A DNA stretch of 64,000 bases from the IMG/VR virus record IMGVR_UViG_3300044652_000025, positions 87,491 to 151,490 of that record; one strand, 5' to 3'. Within the stretch, counting starts at the first letter, position 1; every line of letters starts with the position of its first letter. A program made the translations under genes and the position numbers. This DNA comes from a virus. Lineage: Duplodnaviria > Caudoviricetes. The notes under the pieces were generated by a model. That model saw only the letters and a list, made by a program, of their open reading frames with translations. It was not told the DNA's origin and did not search any database. This document shows, in pieces, positions 3,100-51,560 of the stretch.

Positions 3100-3149
3100 C
3101 GGTATGTCCTGGGGCAGGGGTCGGCCGCTGGCGGGCGGCCCTTGGACGT

Positions 3150-3539
3150 CTAGACGAGCCGGTCGGCGATCGGCTGGGCGAACCAGGAGTCGCAACCGCG
3201 GCAGAAGCTCTCCACGGTCACCGGGCGACCGTGCCATTCCCCGCCACAGACCTCGAAGGCATGACGGGCGATGGCCGGACCCCGCGATCCCCAGCGGGAC
3301 ATGAAGGACTTGAAGATGCCGTACTCCTTGGTCACCGTGCGGGCGAACGATCCACGCTTCGATTCGATCTGATGGACGACGTAGTCCTGCAAGTCATTCC
3401 AGGACCATTCCTCGTCGGACTTCCCGACATAGGACATGCGCTGCGATCGAGGTGTCGGATGGGGAGTGACTGTGACCGTTTGTGTGATGACCAGGCGGCT
3501 CACGCCCGCCAGGTCGAGTTCGTCGTCGATGTTCCTCAC
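3150..3539 (-). CDS. Hypothetical protein in replication module
   Basis: GTGA-coupled to upstream gene, phage-like codon usage; start uncertain. Confidence 0.65.
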   Translation of the reverse strand: MRNIDDELDLAGVSRLVITQTVTVTPHPTPRSQRMSYVGKSDEEWSWNDLQDYVVHQIESKRGSFARTVTKEYGIFKSFMSRWGSRGPAIARHAFEVCGGEWHGRPVTVESFCRGCDSWFAQPIADRLV

Positions 3540-3889
3540 GCTGTTGCCCTTTCACTGCTGGCGGACGCGGGTCGCCGTCCGAAGTACGCCTCGGACACGA
3601 ACCGCCGGAAAGGACCGATGACCTCCTCCATCTCGTCGCGGCGGGGCTCGGAGTCGTAGGAGTCCGTATCGGCCAGGGTGATGACGCTGGCGCTTCCTTT
3701 GTGGATCAGGTGTTTCTGGCAGTCGGCAGTGACGACCATCCAGTGGAAGTCGTCCATCCCGCACAGGTAGCCGGTGATGTCCTCGCCAGAGGGGAACCGG
3801 AAGGTGATGGCGCGGCCGTGCATCACGGTCCGGGCCAGTTGCTTGCTGCTCATGTCCGAACCGCGGGCTCGGTCGTCCCGTCGGGACAT
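3536..3889 (-). CDS. Putative Sm/Hfq-like RNA-binding protein
   Basis: ITFRFPSGEDITGYLCGMDDFHWMV...KHLIHKGSASVI fits the Sm1/Sm2 pattern; start at 3889 or 3853. Confidence 0.55.
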   Translation of the reverse strand: MSRRDDRARGSDMSSKQLARTVMHGRAITFRFPSGEDITGYLCGMDDFHWMVVTADCQKHLIHKGSASVITLADTDSYDSEPRRDEMEEVIGPFRRFVSEAYFGRRPASASSERATA

Positions 3890-3992
3890 GGATCGACCCC
3901 CTGTAGGCGAGGAAAGCCCCCGCCCGCTACTGGCCAGTAGGTAGCGGGACGGGGGTGACGGATCGTGTGAAGCGATCCAAAGGTTCACCAGG

Positions 3993-4021
3993 AGGGTACG
4001 CCGGGCACCTCACTGGGTCAA
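3993..4021 (-). promoter_or_regulatory. Putative sigma70/SigA-type promoter
   Basis: TTGACC-17 nt-TACCCT upstream of the Sm-like/replication genes. Confidence 0.5.
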
Positions 4022-4061
4022 GTGATGAAACCCTTGCCATATATAGAGGGTTGGTATGGCT

Positions 4062-4463
4062 TCAGGCCCGCAACATGGCCCGGATCATGCTGAGGGCGCT
4101 GCGGGCCTCCAGCGCCGAGTCCGGGATCCCGTTCTCGATCTCGTCCAGAAGCAGACCGATCTCCGTCCTGGCCGACATCAACGCGTCGATCTGGTTCAGG
4201 GCGTCGGCCAGCGCCTGGCGGGCGTCGTGCAGGGTGTCGTTGGGGAGCGGAACCTTCAGGTCGACCTCGATCTCCCTCGGCGGGATCGTCAGCACGGTGG
4301 CTTCGGTCGCCGCCTGCGACGGATGCTGCGTCTCCTCCCATATCCGGCGCTGTCGGACGCTGGGGGCGTTCTCCTGGGCCATACAGGGGCCGTCGTGGCC
4401 CTTCTCAAGGGTGCAAGGGTAAACCACGAACGACTTGCCGACATGCGAGCCGCACTCGCCCAT
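4062..4463 (-). CDS. Hypothetical protein
   Basis: N-terminal Cys/His motif (C...CTLEKGHDGPC), helical C-terminus, tight packing. Confidence 0.7.
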   Translation of the reverse strand: MGECGSHVGKSFVVYPCTLEKGHDGPCMAQENAPSVRQRRIWEETQHPSQAATEATVLTIPPREIEVDLKVPLPNDTLHDARQALADALNQIDALMSARTEIGLLLDEIENGIPDSALEARSALSMIRAMLRA

Positions 4464-4464
4464 C

Positions 4465-4956
4465 TCAGGCGACCTGGGTCTTGCGGTGGCTGTGCTCGCC
4501 GATGAGGTGGGTCACCAGCGCGTCACTGGAACTGAAGACCTGGCGACAGTCGGGGCACTGGGCGCCGCTCTCTTCTTCGTAGACCTCGAACTCCGGCGCC
4601 AGGTGGCCGTAGATCCGGCCCTGGACCTGGACGATGCGAAGGGCGTTGAGTAGCTGCTCGCCGGTGATGCCGCCGTTCATAGCCAGAGCGTGGGCCATCC
4701 GCTCGACGTCGACCAGGGAGTAGGTCCTGGCGCCGGACTTGGACCGGGACGCCCCCACCGGCTCGCCATCGAGGATGAGCCTGCCCTTGCGCTCGTTCCA
4801 CCGGATCCAATGGCTCGACCGGCCGAAGAAGACCTTGGCCAGTTCGCCGACGGAGAAGCGCGGCTCTTCTTCGATGGCGGCGGGATCCACGTCGTCGAAG
4901 AGATAGCCGTCGGTAGGCAGATCGTCGCTGATCACGACGCGGGCGGGGGAGTCCAT
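4465..4956 (-). CDS. MerR-like HTH DNA-binding protein with C-terminal C2H2 zinc finger
   Basis: FSVGELAKVFFGRSSHWIRW...GARTYSLVDV; CPDCRQVFSSSDALVTHLIGEH. Confidence 0.75.
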   Translation of the reverse strand: MDSPARVVISDDLPTDGYLFDDVDPAAIEEEPRFSVGELAKVFFGRSSHWIRWNERKGRLILDGEPVGASRSKSGARTYSLVDVERMAHALAMNGGITGEQLLNALRIVQVQGRIYGHLAPEFEVYEEESGAQCPDCRQVFSSSDALVTHLIGEHSHRKTQVA

Positions 4957-5055
4957 GGGTGTCCTTTGCTCAGTGGTAGTGGTTGCGGAACAGGCCGCTG
5001 GCACCGGTCCAAACGAGACAGCCCCCCTGACGCTCTCCTCGACCCCAGAGCCGAT

Positions 5056-5796
5056 TCACCGGTTGTACGCGTTCCGGAGGTAGAGCGCGGCCGACGGTTC
5101 GGAGCGCTCGGTCGCTTCTCGGATGGCGTTGATCAGGGAGGGCTTGCGCTTGAGGGCCAGCATGACCTTGTGTTCGTCCACCACGCGGGTCTGGGTCGTC
5201 ATCTCCAGGTAGTCCTCGTTGGTGAAGTCCAGGTCGGGCCGGTCGATCAGACTCTTGAGGGTGTCGGCGTTGAGGGTGCAGCTACCCTCCCGGACCTCCC
5301 GGGTGAACTTCTTGCCGGTGCCCGGTGCCCCGAGGCATTCGCCCCGCACGATGAAGTGACCGCGCTTGTCGAGGTGGGCGGTAGCCGTCAGCCCGGCCTC
5401 TTCGGCCTCGATGTCGAGGTGGGTGAAGATCGTGGTCCGCATCCCCTCGTGGCGGTCCTCCACGAGCTTCTTCAGCTGATCGAGGACCTGCTTCTCCTCG
5501 ACGAGCGCGGTCACCTCGACCGGCTGGAGCTTGCGCCGCTCGGTCGGCACCACCTTGCCGAACACCTCGGGCAGACGCTCGATGGCCTGGCGCTGGGCGT
5601 GGGTGATGACCGCCACCGACGGCTCCGGCCGGGGCTGGTCGAGCGGCACCGGCTCCTGCGGGGTGATGGTGCGGAGCAGGTCAGTGAAGGCGATGGCGCC
5701 GGTGTTGATCTTGCCGACGACGAGCCGGACGATCTCGTCGAGGGCGGCGGGCTGCTGGTCCTGTGCCGGGTCTTCCCGAGTCAGGTCTTCAGTCAT
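5056..5796 (-). CDS. Hypothetical protein
   Basis: Good coding bias; start set at MTEDL (5796). Confidence 0.75.
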   Translation of the reverse strand: MTEDLTREDPAQDQQPAALDEIVRLVVGKINTGAIAFTDLLRTITPQEPVPLDQPRPEPSVAVITHAQRQAIERLPEVFGKVVPTERRKLQPVEVTALVEEKQVLDQLKKLVEDRHEGMRTTIFTHLDIEAEEAGLTATAHLDKRGHFIVRGECLGAPGTGKKFTREVREGSCTLNADTLKSLIDRPDLDFTNEDYLEMTTQTRVVDEHKVMLALKRKPSLINAIREATERSEPSAALYLRNAYNR

Positions 5797-5850
5797 TTTT
5801 CGATCTATCCCCCGGGTGCGTGTGTCAACAATTCTTGAGACAGAATAGCA

Positions 5851-5884
5851 GAGGCCCCCAGGCCTTGGGAACCCTGGGGGCCTC
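5851..5884 (-). terminator. GC hairpin downstream of DinG
   Basis: GAGGCCCCCAGG/CCTGGGGGCCTC 12-bp inverted repeat; weak U tract. Confidence 0.5.
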
Positions 5885-5908
5885 GCCTCCACCCGGTGCA
5901 TGACGCCA

Positions 5909-7888
5909 TCACGGCCGGGCGAAGAACTCCTCGACGTCGTCGAGGTTGCTGGTCAGCGGCGCCGGGGGCAGCGACCGGACGATCGCCTTCCCGTAGCCCT
6001 TGGTCTTGACCCGGGGGTCGAGCAGGGCGAACACCCCGGTGTCGTTACGGTGGCGGATCAGCCGCCCGAAGCCCTGCTTGAGCACCAGGCTCATCTCCGG
6101 GATGGTGTACTCGGCGAAATCGTTCCGGCCCGCCCGCTTGATGGCGTCGGTCCGGGCCTCCACGATCGGGTCGCTCGGCACCGGGAAGGGCAGCTTGTCG
6201 ATCACCACCAGGGAGCAGGTCTCGCCCTGGAAGTCCACCCCGGTGAAGAACGACGCCGTGGCGAAGAGCACGCTGTGGACGTCGGCCTTGAACTCCTCCA
6301 TGAGGGCCTTGTTGGGACGCTCGCCCTGGATCATCGTCCGGTGGGGGATCCGGTCGGCGATGGCCTCGTAGCACGCCTTCATCTCCCGGTTGGAGGTGAA
6401 GAGCAACAGCGCCCGGCCGTCGGAGTGCGTCACCAGTTCCAGCGCCCGAGCCGCCATCAGGGAGGACCAGGCCGCCCGGTTGGCCGGAGTCGGCTCCGGC
6501 AGGTCGGTCGGGACGTAGAACCGGGCCTGCGAGGCGTAGTCGAACGGGGTGCCCACGTCGATCGAGTCGAAGGCGTCGATGCCCAGCCGACCGGCGATGT
6601 AGTCGAACTTCCCGCCCACCGCCAGGGTGGCCGAGACCAGGACCGCCGTGACCCCCGCCTCGAAGAGATTCTCCCGCAGGTACGGGGCCACCGTCACCGG
6701 GGCGGTCTTGAGGACCAGGTTGCCGCGGTTGTCACGCTCGATCCAGCGGACCAGGTCGTCGAAGCTGGCCAGGATCATGGCCTTGAAACGGGCCACGGTG
6801 GAGGCCGTCCGCCGGGAGAGCCGCGTCCGGCGCTTGGCCACGTCGCCGTAGGAGTCGACCGGCACGCTCTGGAGGAGCGTGACGTCGGCCACCGCGGCGT
6901 GGAGGTCGTCGAGAGCGTTGGCCATGCCGACGAAGGCGTCGCCGTGCTCCAGGAGCACCGCCTCCCGGATCCGTAGCTTGTCGGTACGGGCGGCCTCGAA
7001 GGTCCGCTCCAGGTCCGAGAAGAGAACCGTCATCGCCGTGAGCACCGCGTTCCCGGCGGCCTCCAGGTCGTCGGCCCGAGCCGGGACGTGACGGCGACCG
7101 AAGTTGCGGACCTCGCTCACCAGGTGGCTCACGCCACCGGTCTTGAACTCCGACCCGAGCGTCGAGGAGGCGTACTTCTCCACCTCGTGAGCTTCGTCGA
7201 AGATCACCACGGAGTACTCGTCCAGCATGCTGGCGGCCCCGCCGGTGACCTCCCGGACGACCAGGTCGGTCAGCAGGAGGGCGTGGTTGACGACCACGAC
7301 CTGCGCCGCCTTGGCCCGGACCCGAGCCCGCTGGGCGAAGCACAGGCCGACCTTGGAGCACTCAGCCGCCGTGCAGTCCTCGGAGTCGGCCGCCACCCGG
7401 CGCCACTCGGCGTCGGTGAGGGAGAACGGGAAGGACTCCCGGTCGCCGATGAACTCGGGATCGGTGGCCAGGTCAGTGGCCCGAGCGATGAACCCGGCGA
7501 TCCCGGGGAAGTCCGCCGGGTCGACCGTCGCCGCCCGGTTGAGGCAGGCGTAGTTCGAGCGGCCCTTGAGGAGGGCGAAGGCGAAGGGGACGCCCAGGTG
7601 GTCCTGGAGGAACGGGACGTCAAAATTGGCCACCTGGTCCTGGAGGGCCTTGGTGGCCGTCGAGACGACGACCCGCTTGCCAGCCAGGATGGCGGGGATG
7701 AGGTAGCCGAGGCTCTTGCCGGTGCCACAGCCAGCCTCACCGAGGAGGTGACGGCCGGAGAGCACGGCGGCCTCGACGGCCGCGGCGAGCGCCTGCTGGG
7801 GCGGACGGCTCTCGTAGCCGGGGAGCGTCGCGGCGAGGACGGCCTCGGCCTCCGCGAACGTCCTGGGTCGTACTGCCGAGTCGGGCAA
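5909..7888 (-). CDS. DinG/YoaA-family SF2 helicase
   Basis: ESRPPQ Q motif, EAGCGTGKS, LKGRSNYAC, Fe-S Cys cluster, VNHALL, DEAH, SATL, KQGFGRLIR, LLDPR; RBS GGAGG before TTG. Confidence 0.93.
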   Translation of the reverse strand: MPDSAVRPRTFAEAEAVLAATLPGYESRPPQQALAAAVEAAVLSGRHLLGEAGCGTGKSLGYLIPAILAGKRVVVSTATKALQDQVANFDVPFLQDHLGVPFAFALLKGRSNYACLNRAATVDPADFPGIAGFIARATDLATDPEFIGDRESFPFSLTDAEWRRVAADSEDCTAAECSKVGLCFAQRARVRAKAAQVVVVNHALLLTDLVVREVTGGAASMLDEYSVVIFDEAHEVEKYASSTLGSEFKTGGVSHLVSEVRNFGRRHVPARADDLEAAGNAVLTAMTVLFSDLERTFEAARTDKLRIREAVLLEHGDAFVGMANALDDLHAAVADVTLLQSVPVDSYGDVAKRRTRLSRRTASTVARFKAMILASFDDLVRWIERDNRGNLVLKTAPVTVAPYLRENLFEAGVTAVLVSATLAVGGKFDYIAGRLGIDAFDSIDVGTPFDYASQARFYVPTDLPEPTPANRAAWSSLMAARALELVTHSDGRALLLFTSNREMKACYEAIADRIPHRTMIQGERPNKALMEEFKADVHSVLFATASFFTGVDFQGETCSLVVIDKLPFPVPSDPIVEARTDAIKRAGRNDFAEYTIPEMSLVLKQGFGRLIRHRNDTGVFALLDPRVKTKGYGKAIVRSLPPAPLTSNLDDVEEFFARP

Positions 7889-7974
7889 AGGATCCTCCTG
7901 GTCGGGAGAGAGATGGAGCGGCGGGACGGGGGACTGGGGATCCCCCGCCCGCCACTTATAGCTTACCCTATCTC

Positions 7975-8079
7975 TTAGAAAGTATTACAGTCCATCTGGG
8001 CAAATCTGTCAAGGTAAGCGATAGCCCCTCGAAGCCGTTCGGGATCATCACGGCACTGCCGACAGGCGATCTGCTTCAC
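7975..8079 (-). pseudogene. Remnant of an endonuclease VII-like gene
   Basis: 34 aa ...ACRQCRDDPERLRGAIAYL resembles the EndoVII C-terminus only. Confidence 0.45.
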
Positions 8080-8387
8080 CCAGTCTTCTCCCAGAGGACG
8101 TAGGGGCTCGCACCCCGCATCTGCCGGAGGCGATTCTTCTCGTCCAGCCAGTGCCGCGGCTCGCGCTCGTGGTAGCCCGGATCGGTCTGCACGATGGTGA
8201 TGACCACCCGGTCCCTGGCGTGAGCCCGCACGATGATCCCGCCGCGGCGGTAGCAGTCCATCCCGTCCTTCTGGGTCCACGTCGCCTCGGGATCCTCCAG
8301 GGCCTCGACGACCGCGGCCCGGGTCAGACCCATCTCCAGCATCCGGAGGTAGGCGTGCCGGTGAATGAACCAGGGGGCCTCACCCAT
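8076..8387 (-). CDS. DUF4258-like small protein
   Basis: HRHAYLRMLEMGLTRAAVVEALEDPE...VVITIV pattern. Confidence 0.6.
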   Translation of the reverse strand: MGEAPWFIHRHAYLRMLEMGLTRAAVVEALEDPEATWTQKDGMDCYRRGGIIVRAHARDRVVITIVQTDPGYHEREPRHWLDEKNRLRQMRGASPYVLWEKTG

Positions 8388-8805
8388 CGAGCGCCCCCTC
8401 CCGCATCAGCTTCTCGGCCAGAGCCGCCCCGGCAGCCGTGAAACGCTGCTGGGTGATGTCGATCCGGTAGCGAGCGATGGCCTCCCTGGCCAGCATGGTG
8501 CCGATGCCCTTGCCGCGGTGATTGGGGTCCACCCAGATGTTGGCGTTGCCCGCCTTCTCGCCGCCCATGCGGAAGGTCACGCCGCGGTGGGTGATCCGCT
8601 CGCCGGGCACGTCGTCCGGGTAGTAGTTGAGGATCCCGCGCAGGAGGCCGTCCTGGTCCCGCCACAGCAGGCAGTGGACCGTGGCCCCGTTGAGGGGATG
8701 CACCTCCTCGGTGAAGCCGGGCTCGCCCCGGCGGTCGTACTGGCAGACCTGGGAGGCCCAGTCGAACACCTCCCGGCCGATGGTGGCCTTCGGCTTCCAG
8801 GTCAT
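8380..8805 (-). CDS. GNAT-family acetyltransferase
   Basis: IWVDPNHRGKGIGTML acetyl-CoA motif A; ATGA-coupled start at 8805. Confidence 0.8.
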   Translation of the reverse strand: MTWKPKATIGREVFDWASQVCQYDRRGEPGFTEEVHPLNGATVHCLLWRDQDGLLRGILNYYPDDVPGERITHRGVTFRMGGEKAGNANIWVDPNHRGKGIGTMLAREAIARYRIDITQQRFTAAGAALAEKLMREGALDG

Positions 8806-8972
8806 GAGGCCACCCACCGCTTGGCGAAAGGGTCGATGCCCCGCTCCATCAGTTCCGCGTCCCGTTCCATCTGCTCGGCCATGGCGATCGTCGACGCGGC
8901 CAGCGCCCGATGTTCGGCCGCCATCCGCCGACTGATGACGGCCCGTTCGGCGAGGGTTAGTTTGCGCTTCAT
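8802..8972 (-). CDS. Small hypothetical protein (56 aa)
   Basis: ATGA overlaps at both ends. Confidence 0.65.
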   Translation of the reverse strand: MKRKLTLAERAVISRRMAAEHRALAASTIAMAEQMERDAELMERGIDPFAKRWVAS

Positions 8973-9388
8973 GAGGCCACCCACTGGCGTTCGGCGCAGG
9001 CGGCGCAGTAGCGGGTGCCCGACATGAAGAACTGCGGGGTGTCACCCCGGTACTCGACGTAGGTGTCGCCAGGATGGATGACGCCCAGACAGTCGGGGTG
9101 GTACTCGGGGTTGGGGACCGGGACGATCTCGAAGGTCGGCGGGGCCGTCTCGGGAAACCGGGGGTGGCAGGTGCCCCGGCGCTGGCGTTCGATCCCGGCT
9201 TCGGCCTGCTCCATGGTCTTGTAGCGGTAGGAGCCCTCCATGTCGGCGGTCGACCCGTCGGGCATCCGGTGGTGGCAGTGTCGGACGGCCTCGTAGCTCC
9301 GGACCGGCTCGGCGCCGATGCAGCGGTACTCCTTGCGGGCCGTGCGGACGATGCAGTTCTCGGCGAGGGTGACGGCTCGGAGGTTCAC
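8969..9388 (-). CDS. Hypothetical Cys-rich protein
   Basis: RTARKEYRC...CLGVIHPGDTY...YCAACA Zn-binding pattern. Confidence 0.7.
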   Translation of the reverse strand: MNLRAVTLAENCIVRTARKEYRCIGAEPVRSYEAVRHCHHRMPDGSTADMEGSYRYKTMEQAEAGIERQRRGTCHPRFPETAPPTFEIVPVPNPEYHPDCLGVIHPGDTYVEYRGDTPQFFMSGTRYCAACAERQWVAS

Positions 9389-9657
9389 CGGCGGCGCTCC
9401 CTCCGCTCGCCGCCGCGGGTTTGGGCGACCCGGCGGATCCGGTCGGGACGGACGGCGTGGAACTGGAGCCGACCGCGCTTGCCGCCGAAGACCTCGACGT
9501 GGCGGACCTCGCCGGTGGCGTCGTCGACCTCGATGGCCTTGACCACCGCCTCGAACGAGGCGCCCTTGAGGTCCGGGGCGGGCAGCACCTTGACGATGTC
9601 ACCCACCCTGATGAAGTTCCTGGCGCCCTCGGGGCGCCACTCCTGTAGTCGCATCAT
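9385..9657 (-). CDS. Hypothetical protein (SH3/KOW-like beta barrel?)
   Basis: RBS AGGAG; IRVGDIVKV. Confidence 0.7.
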   Translation of the reverse strand: MMRLQEWRPEGARNFIRVGDIVKVLPAPDLKGASFEAVVKAIEVDDATGEVRHVEVFGGKRGRLQFHAVRPDRIRRVAQTRGGERRERRR

Positions 9658-9813
9658 TGATCTATCTCCTGGAGCATCGGTACCCGGCTGGCGGACCGGG
9701 CGGCGGGCAGACCGCCCACCATCTCAATTATACGCAGCCTGTCAAGTATCCCTTGTGGGGAAGGCCTGTCGGCCACCTGAGTTATATCGTCTCAGGTGGC
9801 CGACGAGAGGCCT

Positions 9814-9996
9814 CTACGGCAAGAGGTCGGGGTCGAAGCGGCCCGGGGCCTTACCCGATCCCTCGCACCGGACGGTCCGGTGGTCGTTGACCAGAACGGC
9901 GTAGGCCGTCACGAGGCGCCGGTGGACGGCGAGCTTGCCGTCGGCGACGGTGACATCGCCGCCGCACCAGGGGCACTCACCGACCGGCCGTGTCAC
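9814..9996 (-). CDS. Small zinc-ribbon protein
   Basis: GTGA-coupled; CPWCG...H...CEGSG. Confidence 0.65.
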   Translation of the reverse strand: MTRPVGECPWCGGDVTVADGKLAVHRRLVTAYAVLVNDHRTVRCEGSGKAPGRFDPDLLP

Positions 9997-10310
9997 CGCA
10001 TCTCCCGCAGCTTGCGCTGGATGGTCTCCAGCGCCCGGATGTTGGAGCGGATGATGCCGTGCTCCTCCCACTCCGAGGGCAGGCCGTCCTTGATGTTGCC
10101 GAGGATGACGATGGCGTCGTCGATCTCCTCGATGAAGTCGGCGAGGAGTTTGGTCGGGACGACAAGGTGGTGGTCGCCGGTGAGCGACACCCCCATTGTC
10201 TCCCAGTCGGCCAGGCCTTCTCCGTCGATCTCCTCGGGGACCGGCTTGCCGAGCATCCACTCCGCGGCGTCGATCTGGCGGATGCCGCGCAGCTTGAGCG
10301 CGATCTGCAT
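9993..10310 (-). CDS. Hypothetical protein
   Basis: Strong RBS GGAAAGGAG; acidic 105 aa. Confidence 0.75.
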   Translation of the reverse strand: MQIALKLRGIRQIDAAEWMLGKPVPEEIDGEGLADWETMGVSLTGDHHLVVPTKLLADFIEEIDDAIVILGNIKDGLPSEWEEHGIIRSNIRALETIQRKLREMR

Positions 10311-10411
10311 GAGCAGATCTCCTTTCCTGGGGCTATGTCGTTGTCAATGAGCAGGTGCCGGGCTGGCGGACCCGGCGGTCAGGGGGCGAGCCGTTCCCGC
10401 CCCGCACTCTA

Positions 10412-10460
10412 AGTATACCCGCTCACCGATAAGTTGCAACATGCCCTCTTCTGGTATGAT
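10412..10460. promoter_or_regulatory. Divergent promoter pair around palindromic TTGCAA
   Basis: Minus: TTGCAA(10434-39)-16-TATACT(10412-17). Plus: extended -10 TGGTATGAT (10452-60). Confidence 0.55.
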
Positions 10461-10466
10461 GCATCA

Positions 10467-10625
10467 ATAGTCACACCAGAGCACAGATATTGACAGGAGA
10501 TACGCAACAGTAGTTAACAACAAGAAATCTGATCGACTGATCTGTATTTTCTGAGCAGGGATTGACAGCATCATCGTGAGTGCTGCGGTCATCAGGTCTG
10601 TTGCTGTTGAGGCTGGTGTGATCCA
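10467..10625 (+). ncRNA. Candidate structured non-coding RNA (or origin)
   Basis: AT-rich, no ORF in track, nested complementary segments; lies just downstream of a -10 box. Confidence 0.35.
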
Positions 10626-10701
10626 CCCGCCCTATAGGGCCTTGTAACCACTTGCAATGGTTACTAGACTCTTCAAACGCGCACAGGCGAAGCAGGAGGA
10701 A

Positions 10702-10720
10702 GGCGGCCCGAAGGGCCGCC
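10702..10720 (-). terminator. Intrinsic terminator-like hairpin
   Basis: GGCGGCC-CTTCG-GGCCGCC followed by a pyrimidine tract on minus. Confidence 0.55.
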
Positions 10721-10817
10721 GAACTACTCGTGGGGGTCTGGGACTCCCGGTTACTGACGAGTATTTGTTCCCCGAACAGCGTGTAATACGAACGACCGTT
10801 CGGTCCTGGTCAACCCC

Positions 10818-11159: not shown

Positions 11160-11469
11160 CTTCTGGCCTCCATCTCTGCGCGTAGGGCCGCTTCGTCCAC
11201 AGGTCACCGCAGTTGTCCCACCAGACGTCGCCCAGGGACTCCCAGTCTTCCTCGTCCATCACAGCTTGAGCCGGTGCGCCCTCTACATCGACAGGGCCTC
11301 GCCGTCACACTAGATCGAGAAAGCCTGCACATTTCCCGGACGTCCCTGCACATATACAGAATGACGGTGGACATTCCAGGAAGTGAGGGGTTAACACCGG
11401 CCCCTGAGCACGACATCTAACAGATAGACCCGTCGCCAGACGGATCAGCCCCAGGAAAGGACATCAATC

Positions 11470-11625
11470 ATGCGTAAGCTCACGATCACGCTTGTCGGTT
11501 CCGCTTCGGATATCGATTGGCTGAAGGATCGGATCATGCCGATGGTCGAAGAGACGATCATCGAAGAGGAAGGCCGCCTCGACGGCCTCGTGAAGGTCGA
11601 CTACGACTGGAACGACATGCGGTAA
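11470..11625 (+). CDS. Small hypothetical protein (51 aa, MRKLTITLVG...), below ORF-track cutoff
   Basis: RBS GGAAAGGA, good codon bias, followed by hairpin. Confidence 0.7.
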   Translation: MRKLTITLVGSASDIDWLKDRIMPMVEETIIEEEGRLDGLVKVDYDWNDMR

Positions 11626-11631
11626 AACGCG

Positions 11632-11665: not shown

Positions 11666-11689
11666 GCGCGTACTGCTCCCCAGCAGGGC

Positions 11690-43718: not shown

Positions 43719-43744
43719 AGTACGTGCCTCCCGGTCTCAGAAGC

Positions 43745-43772
43745 ATCATACCAAGCGGTGTTCAAGGATCAA
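43745..43772 (-). promoter_or_regulatory. SigA-type promoter
   Basis: TTGATC-16-TATGAT with extended TG. Confidence 0.5.
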
Positions 43773-43780
43773 TCGAAACC

Positions 43781-43815
43781 ATAAAAGAAGCCGGTACCCG
43801 AAGTCGGGTACCGGC
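43781..43815 (-). terminator. Intrinsic terminator after MCP
   Basis: GCCGGTACCCG-ACTT-CGGGTACCGGC-TTCTTTT. Confidence 0.85.
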
Positions 43816-43849
43816 CCCTTTAGGTGGGTGGTGCTTAGCTGCTGGTTTA

Positions 43850-44842
43850 CTACGCCTTCGTGACCGTGGTGATGCCCCGAGGGTTGAGGATGGCCATGGT
43901 GACCATCTCGTCAAAGACCCAGCCCTTCCAGAACGCCTCGACGTTGTGGTTCTCCTCGACGTCGAGGGAGTACAGGACAGGGAACACACCGAGGAAGTCG
44001 GGGTTCGGCAGGATGAAGATCTTGCCCTGGGGCACGATGATCGACCGCTGGATCTGGAACTCGCCGAAGGTGGTGATCCGCTCCCCGGCGACGACCCGGT
44101 CCTTGAAGGCCCAGCCCGTCTGGTTGATGTCCCACCGGTAGAAGTCCCGGTAGTCCATCGGGTTGACCAGGATGCGGCCCGCCTCGATCTCGTGCATGTC
44201 CGAGAGCGCCACCGCGGCGTAGAGACTCTGCGGAGTGAAGTAGCCCGAGGTCTCGGTCACGTTGTGGTTCGGGGTGATGTCGTGGTCCGGCCGGGTGGCG
44301 TAGTCCGTCACCGCCGCCTGGAGGATGACCATCAGGCGGCTGTCCTCCTGCTTGAGGATCGCCTGCTTGGTCTCGTCCTGGGCCTGCTCCACGGCGTTGA
44401 TCCGGAGGTAGTACAGATCCTCCTTGCGGATCGCCGGACGGCTGGCGATGCGGAAGAACCGCACCGGCACGCGCTTGCCCTCGAACGGGGTCACACGGAC
44501 CTCGCCCTCGGTGCCGGACATGATGTACGCCTGCCCCAGGTCGTCCCACACGTCGTACTCGACCGGGGTGCCCGGGGTGACCGGGTCCTCGATGAGGACG
44601 TTGCGGACGATGCCCTGGTAGCGGAGCTTCAGCTGGATCGGGCCGATCATGCCCACGCCCAGCCTACGGATCCCGTTGACCTCATCCTGGAGGATGAGGG
44701 CCATCTTCTTGACCTTCTGCTCGTGGGTCAGGGCGCTCTTGGAGCCGTCGCCCTGCCGACGGCGAAGGATCTCGGCGACGTAGTCGTCGGACTTCTTCGC
44801 CACCTTGGGTCGAAGACCCCCTGCCACAGTCAGGCTGCTCAT
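43850..44842 (-). CDS. Major capsid protein (330 aa)
   Basis: MIGPIQLKLRYQGIVRNVL...ILNPRG as recalled for Bxz1-like MCP; RBS AAAGGA; downstream terminator. Confidence 0.9.
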   Translation of the reverse strand: MSSLTVAGGLRPKVAKKSDDYVAEILRRRQGDGSKSALTHEQKVKKMALILQDEVNGIRRLGVGMIGPIQLKLRYQGIVRNVLIEDPVTPGTPVEYDVWDDLGQAYIMSGTEGEVRVTPFEGKRVPVRFFRIASRPAIRKEDLYYLRINAVEQAQDETKQAILKQEDSRLMVILQAAVTDYATRPDHDITPNHNVTETSGYFTPQSLYAAVALSDMHEIEAGRILVNPMDYRDFYRWDINQTGWAFKDRVVAGERITTFGEFQIQRSIIVPQGKIFILPNPDFLGVFPVLYSLDVEENHNVEAFWKGWVFDEMVTMAILNPRGITTVTKA

Positions 44843-44885
44843 GCTTCTGTCCTTTGTGCGAGAGGAAGAGGTGGACGGTGGACGA

Positions 44886-45398
44886 CTACGGGGTGCGCGG
44901 CATGAGGCCGCCGATGGTGATCTTGGTGGCACTGTCGACCGAGATCAGCCGGGCGACCGGAGCAGCCGAGGCGCCGGTGGCTCCGGCCGGGACGAGCTTG
45001 CCCCGGTTGGCGCCGGTAGTGGAGGCGTGGACCAGGAGGTCCGTGCCGTTGCCCGGGTCGGTCCAGGTCGCCGTAGTGTCGAACGCCGGGGCGAGGATCT
45101 CGAACTCGGCGTCGGCGGCGAGTACCCAGACGGCCAGGACGTTGATCCCGGCCTCCTCGACCTCATCGATCCCGTCGCCGCCGATGTAGAGGGCGCACAG
45201 CCCGGCCGGGACGCCGGTCCCGTTGAGGAGGGTGTAGTTCTCCCCGGCGGTCTTCATCATGCACATGCCAGGCCAGATGTCGACGCTTCGGTCCCACGCC
45301 GGGTCGAGGAAGCAGGACTTGGGCGTCGCCTGGGTCCAACCGTAAAGCGGCCGGATGGTCCGCTTGATGTAAGCCTTATTCAAAGTCGTGCGGATCAC
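44886..45398 (-). CDS. Capsid decoration/cement protein
   Basis: Between scaffold and MCP; KRTIRPLY...PGM. Confidence 0.75.
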   Translation of the reverse strand: MIRTTLNKAYIKRTIRPLYGWTQATPKSCFLDPAWDRSVDIWPGMCMMKTAGENYTLLNGTGVPAGLCALYIGGDGIDEVEEAGINVLAVWVLAADAEFEILAPAFDTTATWTDPGNGTDLLVHASTTGANRGKLVPAGATGASAAPVARLISVDSATKITIGGLMPRTP

Positions 45399-45482
45399 AG
45401 GTCACTCCCTCGACAAGTCCAGGTGGATCCTTCATCCCTTGTTCCAGGAGAAGCCCGCACTCGGACAGGAGGACGAGACGAC

Positions 45483-45509
45483 GAAAGCCCCCGAGAGCCG
45501 GGGGCTTTC
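45483..45509 (-). terminator. Terminator-like hairpin
   Basis: GAAAGCCCCCG/CGGGGGCTTTC. Confidence 0.55.
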
Positions 45510-45551
45510 ATCTGCGGCAGAGCCGGGGACGGCCCGGACTGCGGCGACCTG

Positions 45552-48500
45552 CTACTCGAAGAGCAACTCGTCGGCGTCGACCGAGGCCGTCACCTGCATC
45601 TGGGGCTGAGGCGGTTCGACGAACGACGGGGCCGTCCGCTCCCTGCTGGCCGACCGCGGGACGAGGTTGCGCTTGGCCTGGCGGGCCGGTCCCTGACCCT
45701 GACGGATGACCTTGGAGAGGGTGTTGATCTCCGCCTGCATCACCTCGTCCGAGATGTCCGACGACGCGATGTCGGTGGCCATAGCCAGGTCGTCGCCATC
45801 GTCGATGCCAGCCTGGATACGCAGCCGAGCCAGGCGCAGGGCGGCAAAGGTCCGAGCTTCACGAGCGCCTGTCGTCGCCCGCTGCGCGAAGTCGCCTTCG
45901 AGCGGGAACGCCGTGTCGGGGTTGTTCGGGTTGCCAACGCGAACGTCCGTTTCGGTCTTGACGTCGGCCAGCGGTAGTGGTCCCTCGGTGCCGGTGACCG
46001 GCCGGGTCGGATCCTGCTCGTTGAGGTCGAGCGGCTCGTCCAGGACGGTCTCGGTGCCGGTGACGTCGGTGGTGGCGTCGGCTGATACGTCAGTGACCGG
46101 GGTGGCGCCGATGGCCTCGACGTCGGTGTCGTTGAGGTCGCCGAGGGCCTCTTCCGTGGTCTCGGCCGGAGCTTCGGCCGGAGGGTCGGCGATGGGCTGG
46201 GCGGGGTTGTTCTCATCGGCGACCTTCATGAGCGCCGCGAACTTGGGGTGCTGGTCGACCCCCGCCAGACGGGCGATGGCTTCGAGGCCCCGCCGGAGCG
46301 CGGCGATCTGCTGGGCCTGACGGTCGATGATCTTCTGCTGCTCGGCGAGGGCTGCTAGGACGGGTCGCATAATCTGCTCCTTCTGCGACTGCTTCTGGTT
46401 CTGATCCTTCTTCTCGGATTCAGCCTCTGTCTGACTGTCCTGTCCCTGCTGCTGGGGTGGCTGTTGGTCTGGCTGGTCGAGCTTGTCGTTGCCCACTGGC
46501 CGAAGAGTCCCCTTGCCGCATTCCGGGCAGGTGTCGCCCGCCTGTGGGGTGGTCTCCGGTATCTCGTCGGGCTGTTCCTCGTCGCCCTTCAGCTTGGGCG
46601 AAGTCGGGGTACCGTCCTTCGACGGCGGGTGCGGAAGCGACGGTGACTGCGGGAAGCTGGCGGGCGCCGCGGTCTTCGACTGCTTGTCCATCCACGGCGG
46701 CTTGGACTTCTTCTTCGGCTTGCCATCCTCGTCGGTCGCGTCTTCGTCCTCATCATTCGATGAGTCGGATGTCTCTCCGCCGCCGAACATCTGCTCGAAC
46801 TCGGCGTTGATGTCGCCGCCGCCATCGACCGGCGCCGCATCTGCCTCAGTCTCGGCCGTGGGGTCGGAGTTGAACTTCGCCCCGCACTGATCACAGACCA
46901 GCTGCTCATTACCGGGCTCGACGGCGCCCTCGTCCTCGTCCTGGCGCAGGTCGACGTCCCTGGCCTGTTCCAAGTCGGGATCCATGAAGCTGTCCGGCGG
47001 CTTAACGAAGCCACAGACGAGGCACTTCTCGCCGTCGTAGGCCGCTTCCTCGCCGCAGACGGGGCAGTCGGCGTCACGCAAAGTGTCCACTTGTGCCGGT
47101 GCCTTGGCCTCACCGTATGAAATGGTCTGTAGACTGGAATCGCCGGGGTTCGGCATGGCAAGGCGCTTTTCGCCGGGCCGGGTATTGGCACGACTTGTCA
47201 TGGCAGGAGTACCGGGAGGCGGCGTTCGCGTCGCCTCCCTTTCCTTGGCGCCCCACTTGTGCTCGAAGCACCCACCGTTCCGGCGGCAGTGGTAGGTGTG
47301 GAACTTCTCCCGGCCCGCGGCATTGTCGAAGTAGCCGTCGTACCAGGACTCCGGCTCGTTGCGGGCGTCGCCGCCCTCCAGGTTCCGGGACTTCCAGCCG
47401 CGGTTGTAGTGCTTGCGGTACTCGGGATCGACACCATCACCGACGGCGGCCTCGAAGGGTAGACGCCCCTCGATGATGTCCCACGCCTCCTTGACCGTCT
47501 TGCCCTCGGCGTAGAGCAGGTACGCCTCGGCCGAGTCCCACTCGCCGCGGCCGACGAAGAGCGAGTAGTCCCGCAGGTTGGAGACCACGCCGCGGCGGTA
47601 GTCCGGGCCGGTCTGGACGTAGGGCAGCAGGGCCTCGACGCGCTCGCGGTCCTCGGTCCGGTAGTTGATAGTCCCGAAGCCCGGCACGTCCATCGTCTCG
47701 ACCGCGGCGGTGCGCCGGAGCGCAGCCAGGCGGCGGCGTCCCTCGACGCCACCGTGCTCCTCGACGGCCTTGGGGTCGGGCTTGTCCAGCCAGTCCAGGA
47801 ACGGCATCCCCCACTCCTCGCAGAACTTATTGGCCTCGGCCAGGAGGGGGATGATGTCCATGTCGATCCGATCGATGTCGACGTCGAGATCCCCCTCCTT
47901 CCCGTCGGCCCAGTCGGTGGCGGCCAGGGCGGCCCAGCGGTGGTGGCCGTCGACGATGTAGTTGTCCTTGGAGACGAAGATCCGGTCGGGCTCGCCCTGC
48001 TCGTTGAGGACCACTGGCGGCTTGCCGGTCTTGGCGATCTCACCCTCGATCCAGTCGGCCATCCCGGCGATCTTGGAGGACCGCAGCTGGTTCTGAGTGG
48101 CCTTGAGGAAGGTGGCCTTCTCGGTGGTCGGCTCGACGGCGACACCACGCTCGACGAGCATCTTGCGGAACAGCGGCTGGAGGTTGTACTCGCCGTTCGG
48201 CCCCTTGGGGATGTTCTCCTTGAGGATCTTCGAGTCCTTGAACGGCTTCTTGGTCTTCAGCTGGGGCATCTGGATGCGGGGGACACCCTTGCTCTGGACG
48301 CAGAAGAGGTTCGTCCCCTTGACCGTGACGTTGCACAGGTCGATCTCGACATCCTGACCCTTGGCCCTGGCGTCCTTGATCATGTCGCCGAGCTTGTCTA
48401 GCAGGGTGGATACGACCCTGGGCTGCTTGAGGTTGACGTGCTTACCCTCGGCCAGGGCCTTGGCCGCCACCTCGACATCGTCGGTCTCGATGGGGTTCTG

Positions 48501-50519
48501 GGGGTGGCCCTCCTCGCGGTCCTCCCGCTTGGGCTTGTCCTCGGCGGCGGCCTCTTCGGTCTCGTCCTTCCCCGCGTCCTCGGCGCCGGGCCGCGGCGAC
48601 TTGGGGGCGGCGTGACCACCGGGGCCGGTCGTCCACTCGCCGCTCTTGTCCCGCTTCTCGCCCGGATCGTAGGCCAGGAACCGGAACTCATTGTTCAATG
48701 AGGCCGCCCCGCCCGCCGTCTTGGAGGCCCAGAACCCACTCAGCCAGTCGGAGTTGCGACGCTTCGGACGGCGACCCAGGGGGCGCTTGCCGGTGTGGCG
48801 GAGGAACCGGCCGCGGCTGACGTAGACGGCGAACCCGCACGCCGGGCAGGTCGCCCGACCCTCATGCGGTGCCCCTGGCGGGACAGGGGTGTCGGTCCCC
48901 GGGCAGGCGGACCCGCCACTGGGGGCATCGTCGGCGTCGGCGTCGCCATCGGACGCCTCCACCAGCGCGGCGAAGGAGGCGTTGAGCGCCGCGGTCTTCG
49001 AGGCGTAGGCGTGCTGATGGGTGTCGTGCCAGAGGTCGTAGTCCCGGAGGAACTTCTCGATCTCGGCGTGCCACTCGGGGTTGTGCGGCCCTGGCGGGGG
49101 CAGCTGACCGTGGGGGAAGAACTTCTCGCCCATGTTCTTCCGCATGTCAGCCATCATCGAGTCGTAGTACCGCTGGTACTCCTCGTCGCTCATGTTCTCG
49201 ATGTCTTGCATCGACGGGCGGCCGGTGGGGATCTGCGCCTCCTGCAACCTGTTGCTGGGCACCGGCTGACGAGCCTTACGGGGCACGTAGCTCCGCATCC
49301 AGTTGGCCAGCTGGCCCGGAGAGGAGAACTCGGTGGTCTGCTCATCGCGACCCCAATAGAACCCCTGGGTCCGGTCGATGACGAGTTCGACGGAGGTCTT
49401 GCGGATCTCCAGATCACGGCAGATGGTCAGCATGGTCTGAGCCTGCGCCTCGGTCGGCTTGATGACCGCGTCCATGCTGATCTTGAAACTGGGGTTCCGG
49501 GGATAGTTGATGATCAGTCCCCGGATCGCTCCCTGGCCGAACCCTGTGTCATAACCGTAATCAGCATGCATCTCGACCGCGACGACCTTGCCGTCGGGCA
49601 GCATCCAGATGGCGTTGTACTCGCCCATGCCCTTGGGAAAGGCATCCGGAAACTTGTTCAAATAGTCAGTAACACTGAAAGTACCGTAGACCCTACAATA
49701 CTTCTGCAACTCAGCAATGAAGGAATCCAGAGTCGCTATCTTGAATTTGAAGTCGTCATGGCCCGGCAAGGTCCGCCTCGGCTCGGCTAGTCCCGGCAAG
49801 GCTCGTTGCGGTTGGGCATGGCTGTCATGGTGCGGTTTGGAAGCGGCCTTGGAGACTACTCCAGGGCCGCTTTCGACTCCCAAAAAGTATGCAGTTGGGT
49901 CTGCTGGTTCTTCTACCAGCAAGCTGTTCTCGAAGAACCGGAGTCCGTAACAGATCTCATGTACGAGGACATCCTCTTGTGTACCTGAGGCCGTGCGGCG
50001 GCGGATCCTTTTGCCCTTCAGCTTCGGGATGTGTTGGCAGTACTCCAGGGGGGTCGAGGCACGGTTCCCACAGAACGAACACACCGAGTACTCGACATCG
50101 GTTCCCATCGAGGTCCGGTCGACCTCACCAGCGAGGATGGCCTGGGCCAGCTTGGGGAACTTCTGGCCATCGATCTCCATCAAAACCTCAACCCATGTGT
50201 CCGGCGTCCCATCCGGGTTCGTGTCCTCGTGGAGGGCGGCGTCGATGATGACACCGCGGGCGCGTCGGTGGTTGTCGTTGCGGTGGTTGACGAAGACCGG
50301 CTTGCCGACGAAGGTCCGATAGGCGGTCTTGATCTCCTCGGCCGGGAAGGTGTCGAAGTTATCGTTCGTCCGCGACGAGATGGCCCGGCTCCTCACGTAG
50401 AGGAACCCTGGCCGCTTCTCATAGATGAATGAGTGCCGGTGGGCGGTACGGAACGTGGCCCGCTGGTCACCCATCTCCGCGCTGAGGACGGCGGCCGACG
50501 CGAACTTGGTCAGCATCAC
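45552..50519 (-). CDS. Capsid maturation protease-scaffold polyprotein with inserted domains (1655 aa)
   Basis: N-terminal FVGKPVFVNH...RGVIIDA...TSMG..V..S.CS.CGN protease; ParB/Srx-like IVDGHHRW; acidic helical C-terminus; upstream of MCP. Confidence 0.85.
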   Translation of the reverse strand: MMLTKFASAAVLSAEMGDQRATFRTAHRHSFIYEKRPGFLYVRSRAISSRTNDNFDTFPAEEIKTAYRTFVGKPVFVNHRNDNHRRARGVIIDAALHEDTNPDGTPDTWVEVLMEIDGQKFPKLAQAILAGEVDRTSMGTDVEYSVCSFCGNRASTPLEYCQHIPKLKGKRIRRRTASGTQEDVLVHEICYGLRFFENSLLVEEPADPTAYFLGVESGPGVVSKAASKPHHDSHAQPQRALPGLAEPRRTLPGHDDFKFKIATLDSFIAELQKYCRVYGTFSVTDYLNKFPDAFPKGMGEYNAIWMLPDGKVVAVEMHADYGYDTGFGQGAIRGLIINYPRNPSFKISMDAVIKPTEAQAQTMLTICRDLEIRKTSVELVIDRTQGFYWGRDEQTTEFSSPGQLANWMRSYVPRKARQPVPSNRLQEAQIPTGRPSMQDIENMSDEEYQRYYDSMMADMRKNMGEKFFPHGQLPPPGPHNPEWHAEIEKFLRDYDLWHDTHQHAYASKTAALNASFAALVEASDGDADADDAPSGGSACPGTDTPVPPGAPHEGRATCPACGFAVYVSRGRFLRHTGKRPLGRRPKRRNSDWLSGFWASKTAGGAASLNNEFRFLAYDPGEKRDKSGEWTTGPGGHAAPKSPRPGAEDAGKDETEEAAAEDKPKREDREEGHPQNPIETDDVEVAAKALAEGKHVNLKQPRVVSTLLDKLGDMIKDARAKGQDVEIDLCNVTVKGTNLFCVQSKGVPRIQMPQLKTKKPFKDSKILKENIPKGPNGEYNLQPLFRKMLVERGVAVEPTTEKATFLKATQNQLRSSKIAGMADWIEGEIAKTGKPPVVLNEQGEPDRIFVSKDNYIVDGHHRWAALAATDWADGKEGDLDVDIDRIDMDIIPLLAEANKFCEEWGMPFLDWLDKPDPKAVEEHGGVEGRRRLAALRRTAAVETMDVPGFGTINYRTEDRERVEALLPYVQTGPDYRRGVVSNLRDYSLFVGRGEWDSAEAYLLYAEGKTVKEAWDIIEGRLPFEAAVGDGVDPEYRKHYNRGWKSRNLEGGDARNEPESWYDGYFDNAAGREKFHTYHCRRNGGCFEHKWGAKEREATRTPPPGTPAMTSRANTRPGEKRLAMPNPGDSSLQTISYGEAKAPAQVDTLRDADCPVCGEEAAYDGEKCLVCGFVKPPDSFMDPDLEQARDVDLRQDEDEGAVEPGNEQLVCDQCGAKFNSDPTAETEADAAPVDGGGDINAEFEQMFGGGETSDSSNDEDEDATDEDGKPKKKSKPPWMDKQSKTAAPASFPQSPSLPHPPSKDGTPTSPKLKGDEEQPDEIPETTPQAGDTCPECGKGTLRPVGNDKLDQPDQQPPQQQGQDSQTEAESEKKDQNQKQSQKEQIMRPVLAALAEQQKIIDRQAQQIAALRRGLEAIARLAGVDQHPKFAALMKVADENNPAQPIADPPAEAPAETTEEALGDLNDTDVEAIGATPVTDVSADATTDVTGTETVLDEPLDLNEQDPTRPVTGTEGPLPLADVKTETDVRVGNPNNPDTAFPLEGDFAQRATTGAREARTFAALRLARLRIQAGIDDGDDLAMATDIASSDISDEVMQAEINTLSKVIRQGQGPARQAKRNLVPRSASRERTAPSFVEPPQPQMQVTASVDADELLFE

Positions 50520-50620
50520 CCCTTCACCGGGGGTCAGGGGTGGTCAGGCAGGCCCCGACCGGTCTCGGCCGCCGCTCGCCGCTTAACTCGATAGGTCAGC
50601 CCGGGACCGGTGGGGGCGGG

Positions 50621-50800
50621 TCAGATTCGCTGCTTGATCGGGTACCCGTCAAGTTCGATGACCGTGACCTCGGTGGCGTCGGGATCGCGGCGGCGGACCA
50701 TCTCCAGGGCCTCGGTCAGGTCGAGGTCGTAGCCGACCGCCTTACCGTCCCTGGTCAGATCGACCTGTCCGGAAGGCAGGGTCTCGATCTGCCAAGCCAT
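50621..50800 (-). CDS. 59-aa hypothetical protein (MAWQIETLP...), below ORF-track cutoff
   Basis: Manual translation, RBS AGGA, good codon bias. Confidence 0.65.
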   Translation of the reverse strand: MAWQIETLPSGQVDLTRDGKAVGYDLDLTEALEMVRRRDPDATEVTVIELDGYPIKQRI

Positions 50801-50986
50801 GGGTCGATCCTAGTTGCCAAACAGCGTCGCCTCGACGACAGCCGTGCTCACCCCGCACTCCTGCGCTTCCCCTCTCGACATCGCGTCTCGTGCCGTAGCG
50901 ATGCCGGTACCCGGCCCAGCTGCGGGCCTCGGCCAGGCGGCGGATCCGGGTCGCTCGGTCGGTGCGCTCGTCGAAGTAGTCCATGA

Positions 50987-51412
50987 CTACAGAGCCAGCT
51001 TGCAAGCGTCGGTGACGTTCGACAGCGTCAGTCCATACACCGGCCCATGAGCGGCGAAGAAGTCCTGGGCAAAGAGCGCAGCGATGCTATCCCGGTCTCC
51101 GAATCCAGCATGGATTGCCTGTGCCATGGTCCAGCCATTGGAGTAACCGTTGGGTTTGTCCGCCATGGTGCGGCACATATCGGTGACCTGGTTTAGGTTC
51201 GCCGTCCGGGCATCGAGCGTCGTCGAGGTGGTGTCAGCGTTTGCACTCGATGACCCGCTACCACCCATGAAAGTCGTCACGAGGATGAGGAGCAGGACGA
51301 CCAGCCCGGCCCCGGCGTACAGCTGCTTGGCGTGGGTCTTGATGAACGGCTCGGGGGCCGTCGCGGTCCCGTCATCGTTCAAGGTGGTCGTCGGGGGGCG
51401 GTAGTACTCCAT
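50987..51412 (-). CDS. Single-TM membrane protein
   Basis: LYAGAGLVVLLLILVTTFM; RBS GGAAAGGA. Confidence 0.75.
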   Translation of the reverse strand: MEYYRPPTTTLNDDGTATAPEPFIKTHAKQLYAGAGLVVLLLILVTTFMGGSGSSSANADTTSTTLDARTANLNQVTDMCRTMADKPNGYSNGWTMAQAIHAGFGDRDSIAALFAQDFFAAHGPVYGLTLSNVTDACKLAL

Positions 51413-51560
51413 GACCTGGCGGGGTCCTTTCCTGGGGGCTATCGGGTTTATCGGTTAAAATGGTGAGGACTTGAGCCGCTGGTCCCCAGCAGGGGGGAGG
51501 ATGCACTTGAGTCCCGGCTGGGGGACCGGGACTCGCGTGCTTGGCGGGGGGCCATCTGTG

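Follow-up and report, generated by a model that had tools for sequence, protein, structure and literature searches.

The operator of gp43 in phages T4 and RB69 consists of a 5-bp stem and an 8-nt loop beside the Shine–Dalgarno sequence (SD) of one gene and is bound by that gene's own product, and the sites of T4 RegA are AU-rich, unstructured and overlap the AUG. The boxB hairpin of the λ and P22 nut sites, which is bound by N, bears a GNRA-like pentaloop, and is accompanied by boxA; with about two copies per genome, it lies downstream of early promoters and acts on RNA polymerase. The c4 antisense RNA of P1 and P7 pairs through two longer complementary stretches, an action shown experimentally, and the 6C small RNA of Actinobacteria is a trans-acting RNA with two loops rather than an mRNA-leader hairpin. 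In Cluster K mycobacteriophages, the start-associated sequence (SAS) is a 13-bp word containing the SD, and the extended start-associated sequence (ESAS) combines conserved 17-bp inverted-repeat arms with a variable spacer (PMC3203893). Post-transcriptional control is almost unexplored in phages of high-GC Gram-positive hosts, and SAS and ESAS are still without a known function, which is thought to be translational (PMC3203893). Here, we describe a genuine, uncatalogued family of putative cis-regulatory RNA hairpins in an uncultured clade of ~150-kb high-GC phages with an Hfq-like gene, starting from the final 64 kb (the window) of the virus record IMGVR_UViG_3300044652_000025.

This record comprises 151,490 bp at 66% GC—linear according to IMG/VR and complete according to CheckV—and nearly all of its genes lie on the minus strand; positions marked genome refer to the whole record, all others to the 64-kb window. 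No cultured phage matched the window in a megablast search, and none is close at the DNA level. The DinG-type helicase gene at 5909-7888 has many metagenomic relatives of 47-74% identity; the contigs that carry them reach 166 kb, and L001-L008 denote the neighbourhoods of several of these relatives. Scans of IMG/VR with the helicase and with an alignment of the Hfq-like protein as queries found no relatives.

The element has at its core the hexaloop CCGCCA with an N·G closing pair (mostly U·G), carried on a stem of 4-7 bp of any sequence. Vienna folds place the hairpins in minimum-energy structures, with the CCGCCA hexaloop and with the flanking Y and G paired, and G·U pairs are confined to the sense strand. 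From the end of the hairpin to the start codon there are 5-50 nt (median ~22 nt); the hairpin either lies just upstream of the SD or has a 3' arm that is itself the SD, as in at least four copies (genome 41372, where the arm reads AGGAG, L004 14568, L148 3510 and L006 8149). Four canonical copies are present in this genome (Table 1) and score 25-27 bits with a covariance model built from 14 copies.

It is the combination of loop, stem, strand and position that is specific. The loose pattern YCCSCCAG is not rare: the plus strand of the genome has 33 copies and the minus strand 41. Requiring a flanking stem of 5 bp or longer leaves five copies on the minus strand, which is the sense strand, and one on the plus. 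For this genome and five relatives, we counted CCGCCAG words flanked directly by a stem of 4 bp or more, a leader being the 60 nt or less upstream of a start. Such stems accompany 14 of the 28 words in sense leaders and only one of the 146 elsewhere (Fisher p = 3.5e-12). An equal frequency on antisense strands and within coding sequence, which the earlier note on this DNA had named as the sign of a spurious family, is not what these counts give: 0/79 at other sense sites and 1/67 at antisense sites. A count unbiased toward the loop, taking every loop 6-mer from hairpins whose stems span 5 bp or more, leads to the same motif: over 359 leaders, CCGCCA was found in 15, CGCCAG in 14 and UCCGCC in 10, the top unrelated 6-mer in 6, and the coding control gave 1-2. 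When the covariance model was scanned over the genome and its relatives, a check that the same note had proposed, its only hits beyond the training set were the hairpin at 51509-34, at 20 bits, and in L001 a copy shifted in register, at 19 bits; nothing convincing appeared on antisense strands.

Mere likeness between GC-rich hairpins of no common function is hardly credible as an explanation. Hairpins with 5-bp stems are indeed very common in DNA of 66% GC—a census of them was swamped by chance hairpins—and one version of the stem, searched as its exact 16-nt DNA pattern, recurs in more than 120 unrelated GC-rich viral contigs. The enrichment in leaders, the 6-mer count and the conservation at orthologous sites nevertheless strongly disfavour it. 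A reading of the loop complement CTGGCGG as a Chi site was likewise rejected, there being no strand skew (51 vs 58 copies).

The hairpin in the leader of the DnaC-like helicase loader gene has an orthologous copy in 10 relatives, with differing stems (Table 1). Given eight of these leaders and no structural hint, RNAalifold returned the same hairpin, with three of six pairs compensatory, the loop invariant and the flanks diverged. This gene is the best conserved target of the element. A second orthologous site precedes the first gene past a large AT-rich divergent gap, the place of the 10357-10376 hairpin: six genomes show six stems there, the same loop being carried on other stems in L001, L002, L004, L005 and L006. 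A MAFFT alignment of this second site was misaligned, and the alifold result from it was not used. Further copies lie before the gene between the Hfq-like and DnaC-like genes (L001, L002) and before a DUF7242 gene (L004, L148), and the element is retained in distant relatives in which the identity of the Hfq-like protein falls to 36-46%. Orientation follows transcription, divergent genes included.

Much of what the earlier note had proposed is borne out by these comparisons. Stems that differ and still pair around a retained loop are found as compensating stems at orthologous sites; the orientation with transcription, including the flip on a plus-strand gene, recurs in the divergent leaders of this genome and of L002; and the lack of a named family agrees with Rfam release 15, which gave no match at gathering score over the whole 64-kb window. 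All seven sequences from which the family had been drawn are present at the positions and on the strands claimed, and five of them stay: three canonical copies (3123-40, 9683-9700, 10357-76) and two variants (11430-43, 51509-34). The words at 51413-26 and 7920-53 leave the family, and one canonical copy outside the window joins it.

Table 1. Positions of the hairpins, genes and promoter-like modules, and stems of the DnaC-leader hairpin in this genome and in relatives.
Feature	Position or locus	Strand	Description
Canonical hairpin	3123-3140	−	GGCCG-CCCGCCAG-CGGCC; model 25.5 bits; minimum-energy fold has the hexaloop
Canonical hairpin	9683-9700	−	CCCGG-UCCGCCAG-CCGGG; model 27.2 bits; folds
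Canonical hairpin	10357-10376	−	GCCGGG-UCCGCCAG-CCCGGC; model 25.4 bits; folds
Canonical hairpin, fourth copy	genome 41353-41372 (outside the window)	−	CTCCT-ACCGCCAG-AGGAG; from reading through intergenic regions
Plausible short variant	11430-11443	+	CCGU-CGCCAG-ACGG; leader of the divergent plus-strand gene 11470-11625
Variant, membership uncertain	51509-51534	−	Loop UCCCCCAG, stem 9-10 bp; model 20 bits; whole-leader fold z = -3.55
Motif without stable stem	3558-3565	−	UCCGCCAG; ~20 nt ahead of the 129-aa gene (start GTG), within the 3' end of the Hfq-like gene
Non-member, CCGCCAG word	51413-51426	−	3-bp stem only; between SD and ATG
Non-member, 17-bp hairpin	7920-7953	−	Upstream of the DinG helicase gene; at +1 of a GGGUAAGCU-type promoter; fold z = -4.5
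Long hairpin	3917-3955	−	5' leader of the Hfq-like gene; 14 bp and one bulge; fold z = -3.37
Hfq-like (predicted Sm-fold) gene	3536-3889	−	117 aa; first of the hairpin-carrying operon; Pfam profile, AlphaFold2, Foldseek
Conserved 129-aa protein gene	3150-3539	−	Between the Hfq-like and DnaC-like genes; alignment of relatives
DnaC-like helicase loader gene	2269-3099	−	Third of the triad; PHROG 50, E 1e-36; Pfam IstB_IS21
Promoter-like modules	7960-7968, 9727-9735, 10412-10420	−	GGGUAUAAU-like -10 box
Promoter-like modules	genome 30474-30648, 34405-34454, 34819-34918, 36107-36381	−	GGGUAUAAU-like -10 box
Promoter-like modules	genome 41353-41404, 44382-44534, 46400-46719, 64105-64194	−	GGGUAUAAU-like -10 box
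DnaC-leader stem	window	−	GGCCG/CGGCC
DnaC-leader stem	L001		AGCCG/CGGCU
DnaC-leader stem	L004		AAGCCU/AGGCUU
DnaC-leader stem	L005		GCCU/AGGC
DnaC-leader stem	L006		GCCC/GGGC
DnaC-leader stem	L015		GUCU/AGAC
DnaC-leader stem	L147		GCGCC/GGCGC
DnaC-leader stem	L148		CCUGG/CCGGG; closing pair changed to G:C

The 3123-3140 hairpin begins 12 nt after the stop codon of the upstream gene and is followed after 23 nt by the ATG of the DnaC-like loader. The other two canonical copies in the window are each the second hairpin of a leader: that at 9683-9700 lies in the leader starting at the -10-like box 9727-9735, with the ATG of a 90-aa gene (9385-9657) 24 nt downstream, and that at 10357-10376 follows the -10-like box 10412-10420, with 46 nt to the ATG of the first early gene (9993-10310). 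The plus-strand sequence at 11430-43 was not reported by the covariance model; it is plausible as a short variant, being matched by CGAC-CGCCAG-GTCG in the corresponding divergent leader of L002 and by a similar loop, ACGCCAG, in the DnaC leader of L150. The hairpin at 51509-34 follows a stop codon among the structural genes and has 95 nt between it and the next start; its place in the family is uncertain. The motif at 3558-3565 is matched in place by full hairpins in L001 (11300) and L002 (15819). The word at 51413-26 was not reported by the model either, and about one CCGCCAG as near to a start is expected by chance, as estimated from the genome-wide word frequency. The hairpin at 7920-53 was ruled out as a member: its loop is not conserved, those of L001 and L002 differing at the same place, and it belongs to a different class of hairpins that start at a promoter +1. 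The family is thus real, small, confined to the sense strand and tied to the leaders of non-structural genes, the placement ahead of such genes claimed in the earlier note holding for the canonical copies and not for 51509-34.

The best explanation, to which we give about even chances, is a translational operator, whose loop would be read by a phage factor that acts in trans and adjusts the loading of ribosomes. Its position is fixed to the start codon and not to a promoter, its loop is invariant on a free stem, and its G·U pairs are restricted to the sense strand; this reading rests on these features of the sequence. The hairpins also lie within the ribosome-loading region of their target genes, as expected for operators of this class. 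We infer that the element acts as RNA, in cis, within mRNA leaders: a factor made by the phage would recognise the loop displayed on its stem, and its binding would set ribosome loading on a handful of early and replication genes, namely the DnaC-like loader, the gene before it, the first genes of early operons and, in relatives, the DUF7242 gene. The leading candidate for this factor would be the Hfq-like protein encoded at the head of the operon, possibly together with its own leader RNA; a leader RNA acting by loop–loop pairing, or a further protein, might take its place. A direct pairing of the loop with 16S rRNA around positions 33-39 was considered and dropped because that stretch is base-paired in the ribosome.

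The structure, the invariance of the loop, the specificity for strand and position and the conservation with compensating stems are established, and several points still weigh against control by an operator. In most copies, the hairpin leaves the SD free, and how it would control loading is hence not obvious. The training alignment is 85.5% paired vs 53.5% in shuffles, a pair count that—like the covariation count of this alignment—is inflated because the copies were selected for having stems. Only four to five copies occur per genome: the regulon that the earlier note had suggested would be a small one of four to five genes per genome. As for the candidate factor, the loci L016, L018 and L149 carry the Hfq-like gene and, over the stretch covered at each, no canonical short hairpin, and known Hfq binds A- or U-rich single strands, not C-rich loops.

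A processing or stability element—a mark for cleavage by a host or phage ribonuclease, or a protection of the 5' end that uncouples the levels of neighbouring cistrons—would suit a hairpin that sits between cistrons right after an upstream stop codon, as well as the hairpins at 9683 and 10357 that come second after one starting near the predicted transcription start, and the variant at 51509-34, which is strong and distant from the next start. We consider it clearly unlikely, as an invariant loop of 7 nt is not needed unless a sequence-specific nuclease reads it—which leads back to a specific factor—and as the stems are below RNase III length and contain the SD in several copies, indicating ribosome access. 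Intrinsic terminators do not fit either, no T run following any canonical copy and the stems reaching only 4-7 bp.

A nut/boxB-like site, at which an antitermination factor would be loaded onto RNA polymerase, was put forward in the earlier note and is very unlikely. Short hairpins with a conserved loop do occur in early leaders, and those at 9683 and 10357 lie just downstream of -10-like boxes. However, the loop is the 6-nt CCGCCA, the aligned leaders show no conserved upstream box of the boxA type, and the DnaC-leader copy is located inside an operon, directly before a ribosome-binding site and with no promoter upstream. The hairpins adjoin individual ribosome-binding sites rather than early promoters with boxA, the distance that is conserved is the one to the start codon and not to a promoter or terminator, and no N-like or Q-like gene was found among 10 neighbouring proteins scanned.

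Action at the DNA level is highly improbable. A single-stranded or cruciform hairpin might be read as a promoter in the manner of N4, or might signal priming or replication: as DNA, too, the stems are palindromic, the targets are replication genes, and the loop complement contains CTG, the trinucleotide recognised by E. coli primase. Against this stand the few copies, all in leaders, their position bound to start codons and SDs, and the sense-strand G·U pairs, each of which is a C·A mismatch on the opposite strand; moreover, the genome yielded no sigma-factor region 2, and the scan of 10 proteins no phage RNA polymerase.

Returning to the operator and its candidate factor, the Hfq-like gene is the sole match in the genome to the Pfam family Hfq (PF17209), at 15.4 bits and E 0.002 and thus below the 27-bit cut-off; a Pfam scan of the protein gave nothing at E <= 0.01. 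An AlphaFold2 model from six orthologues (predicted local distance difference test score 80.8) shows Sm topology, with a helix at residues 12-23 and five strands, and all PDB chains among the Foldseek matches listed (ranks 1-49) are Hfq, with template modelling scores of 0.70-0.83 normalised to the Hfq chain. Its product is hence predicted to fold like Hfq. The family counts 155 metagenomic members, and tblastn against cultured phages found none. Its homologues always stand ahead of a ~135-aa gene and then a DnaC-like gene, and this triad is conserved in the relatives; the 129-aa protein of the window belongs to no Pfam or PHROG family, and its helical AlphaFold2 model has no PDB match. The short hairpin is present in 5/5 helicase-found loci that carry the Hfq-like gene, and L007 and L008 have neither over the ~20 kb covered at each. 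A link between hairpin and Hfq-like protein is plausible. Nothing bearing on the motif or on Hfq-like proteins of phages came up in searches of the literature.

The 5' leader of the Hfq-like gene carries a long hairpin of its own, whose loop CUGGCC complements GCCAG of the short-hairpin loop. With differing stems of 11-18 bp and the loop CUGG[C/U]C, it appears in 13 of 18 sequences (the window and the loci of 17 relatives) and again in L147 and L148; a long hairpin at this place was noted for the window, L001, L002, L004, L006, L015-L019, L021-L024, L147 and L148. A pyrimidine- or U-rich tract and an CUACAGGAGG-type SD come after it, and it may be an attenuator or an autoregulatory site. An RNA–RNA kissing contact offers itself as an explanation of the short hairpin: GCCAG of the short loop would pair with CUGGC of the long one, and the leader, whether within the mRNA or as a short transcript ended by attenuation, would act as an antisense RNA on its own operon and a few others with the aid of the Hfq-like protein. 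Besides the recurrence of the long loop on varying stems and the attenuator-like tract, it is favoured by L022-L025, in which one leader holds both hairpins with the short one 40-60 nt upstream, by L149, which has the Hfq-like gene and neither motif, and by L017, in which the DnaC-leader loop GGCCAG gives a 6-nt match to CUGGCC. We nevertheless regard it as unlikely. The pairing extends over just 5 nt and gives no account of the two invariant C residues on the 5' side of the short loop, five-letter words of the CUGGC type are common in the hairpin loops of this genome, and the near-invariance of both loops leaves no loop-to-loop covariation to be seen. L025, L026 and L150 have the short hairpin with other long-loop sequences, and L016 and L018 have a CUGGCC/UUGGCC loop without the DnaC-leader hairpin, so that the link between the two loops is only suggestive.

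Two further places touch on this loop. At genome 80878-81007 (minus strand), upstream of a 1236-aa gene (77167-80877), a second long hairpin of 12 bp has GCUGGC at the 3' edge of its loop. At genome 49728-50231 (L011 9900-10460, minus strand), a gene-poor gap of 504 nt contains a promoter-like site and a 15-bp terminator-like hairpin. Within the gap, CUGGCGGGG—the complement of the short-hairpin loop—is single-stranded; about four such words are expected by chance in non-coding DNA. The gap may encode a small RNA, which is only a lead.

The operator reading and these leader RNAs might be parts of one self-contained riboregulatory circuit: an Hfq-like chaperone, a leader RNA with the CUGGCC loop and operators with the CCGCCA loop, in which loop contacts assisted by an Sm ring would time the switch from early to replication genes. 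We hold this to be doubtful, though far from negligible. The likely actinobacterial hosts generally lack Hfq; such a host is likely because the one protein checked that has cultured-phage matches finds all of them in Streptomyces phages and because one relative encodes an Rpf-type transglycosylase domain.

The leaders of this genome also contain about a dozen promoter-like modules on the minus strand (Table 1), composed of the -10-like box, about 7 nt ending in AGUG and a GC-rich hairpin from the predicted +1. Two of these appear to run directly into a start codon, that is, to be leaderless. In orthologous or paralogous early promoters (window 9727-9746, L001 ~5185-5205 and L004 ~8755-8775), TTGACA stands just 7 nt upstream of a TATAAT-like box, a spacing unfit for a standard -35/-10 pair. 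The AT-rich gap before the first early gene includes a conserved block, AGAAAUACAGA ... UCUGUUAACUCCUGA (window 10467-10625 region, L001 4885-5292, L002 7800-8215), whose conservation supports a candidate non-coding RNA there. Elsewhere, the DnaB-type helicase gene at 1-2268 (minus strand) is split by an intein-like insert with homing-endonuclease features, and the region appears as a false gap of 2.3 kb when a simple open-reading-frame caller or one based on third-position GC content is used. The only tRNA called by ARAGORN is an 80-nt tRNA-Pro(GGG) at genome 36417-36496 on the plus strand, opposite to almost all genes.

The element has traits that make it useful for further work: it is short, its invariant loop is sharply defined, many orthologous leaders are at hand in metagenomes, it stands ahead of a replicative helicase loader, and it is linked to an Hfq-like gene. 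RNA hairpin and candidate protein form a concrete, testable pair. If the link to the Hfq-like protein is true, the phage would bring an Sm-type RNA chaperone system into hosts that have none, and the hairpin might provide a compact, loop-specific RNA tag for such hosts.

Among the known systems, the RegA and gene 43 operators share with the element a common RNA signal at the translation starts of several early and replication genes and, for gp43, the geometry of the operator; there is, however, no likeness in sequence and no RegA-like gene among the 10 proteins scanned. Like the element, boxB is a short hairpin of phage early transcripts that is oriented with transcription and read at its loop and not its stem, whereas the present copies are placed at ribosome-binding sites, some of them inside an operon. 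The c4 RNA, derived from a leader and pairing by its loops with ribosome-binding sites downstream in the same operon, follows the pattern of the proposed kissing contact, but here only 5 nt are complementary. With Hfq-dependent riboregulation and 6C, the locus has in common an Sm-fold protein encoded beside structured RNAs and C-rich hairpin loops as interaction surfaces in high-GC Gram-positives; it differs in that canonical Hfq prefers A/U-rich single strands and in that Rfam did not find 6C. The closest actinophage analogue is SAS/ESAS: these, too, are actinophage motifs of one orientation just upstream of the starts of some non-structural genes, and are kept at orthologues (PMC3203893). 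Their logic is reversed in the present element, in which the arms vary and the loop is invariant.

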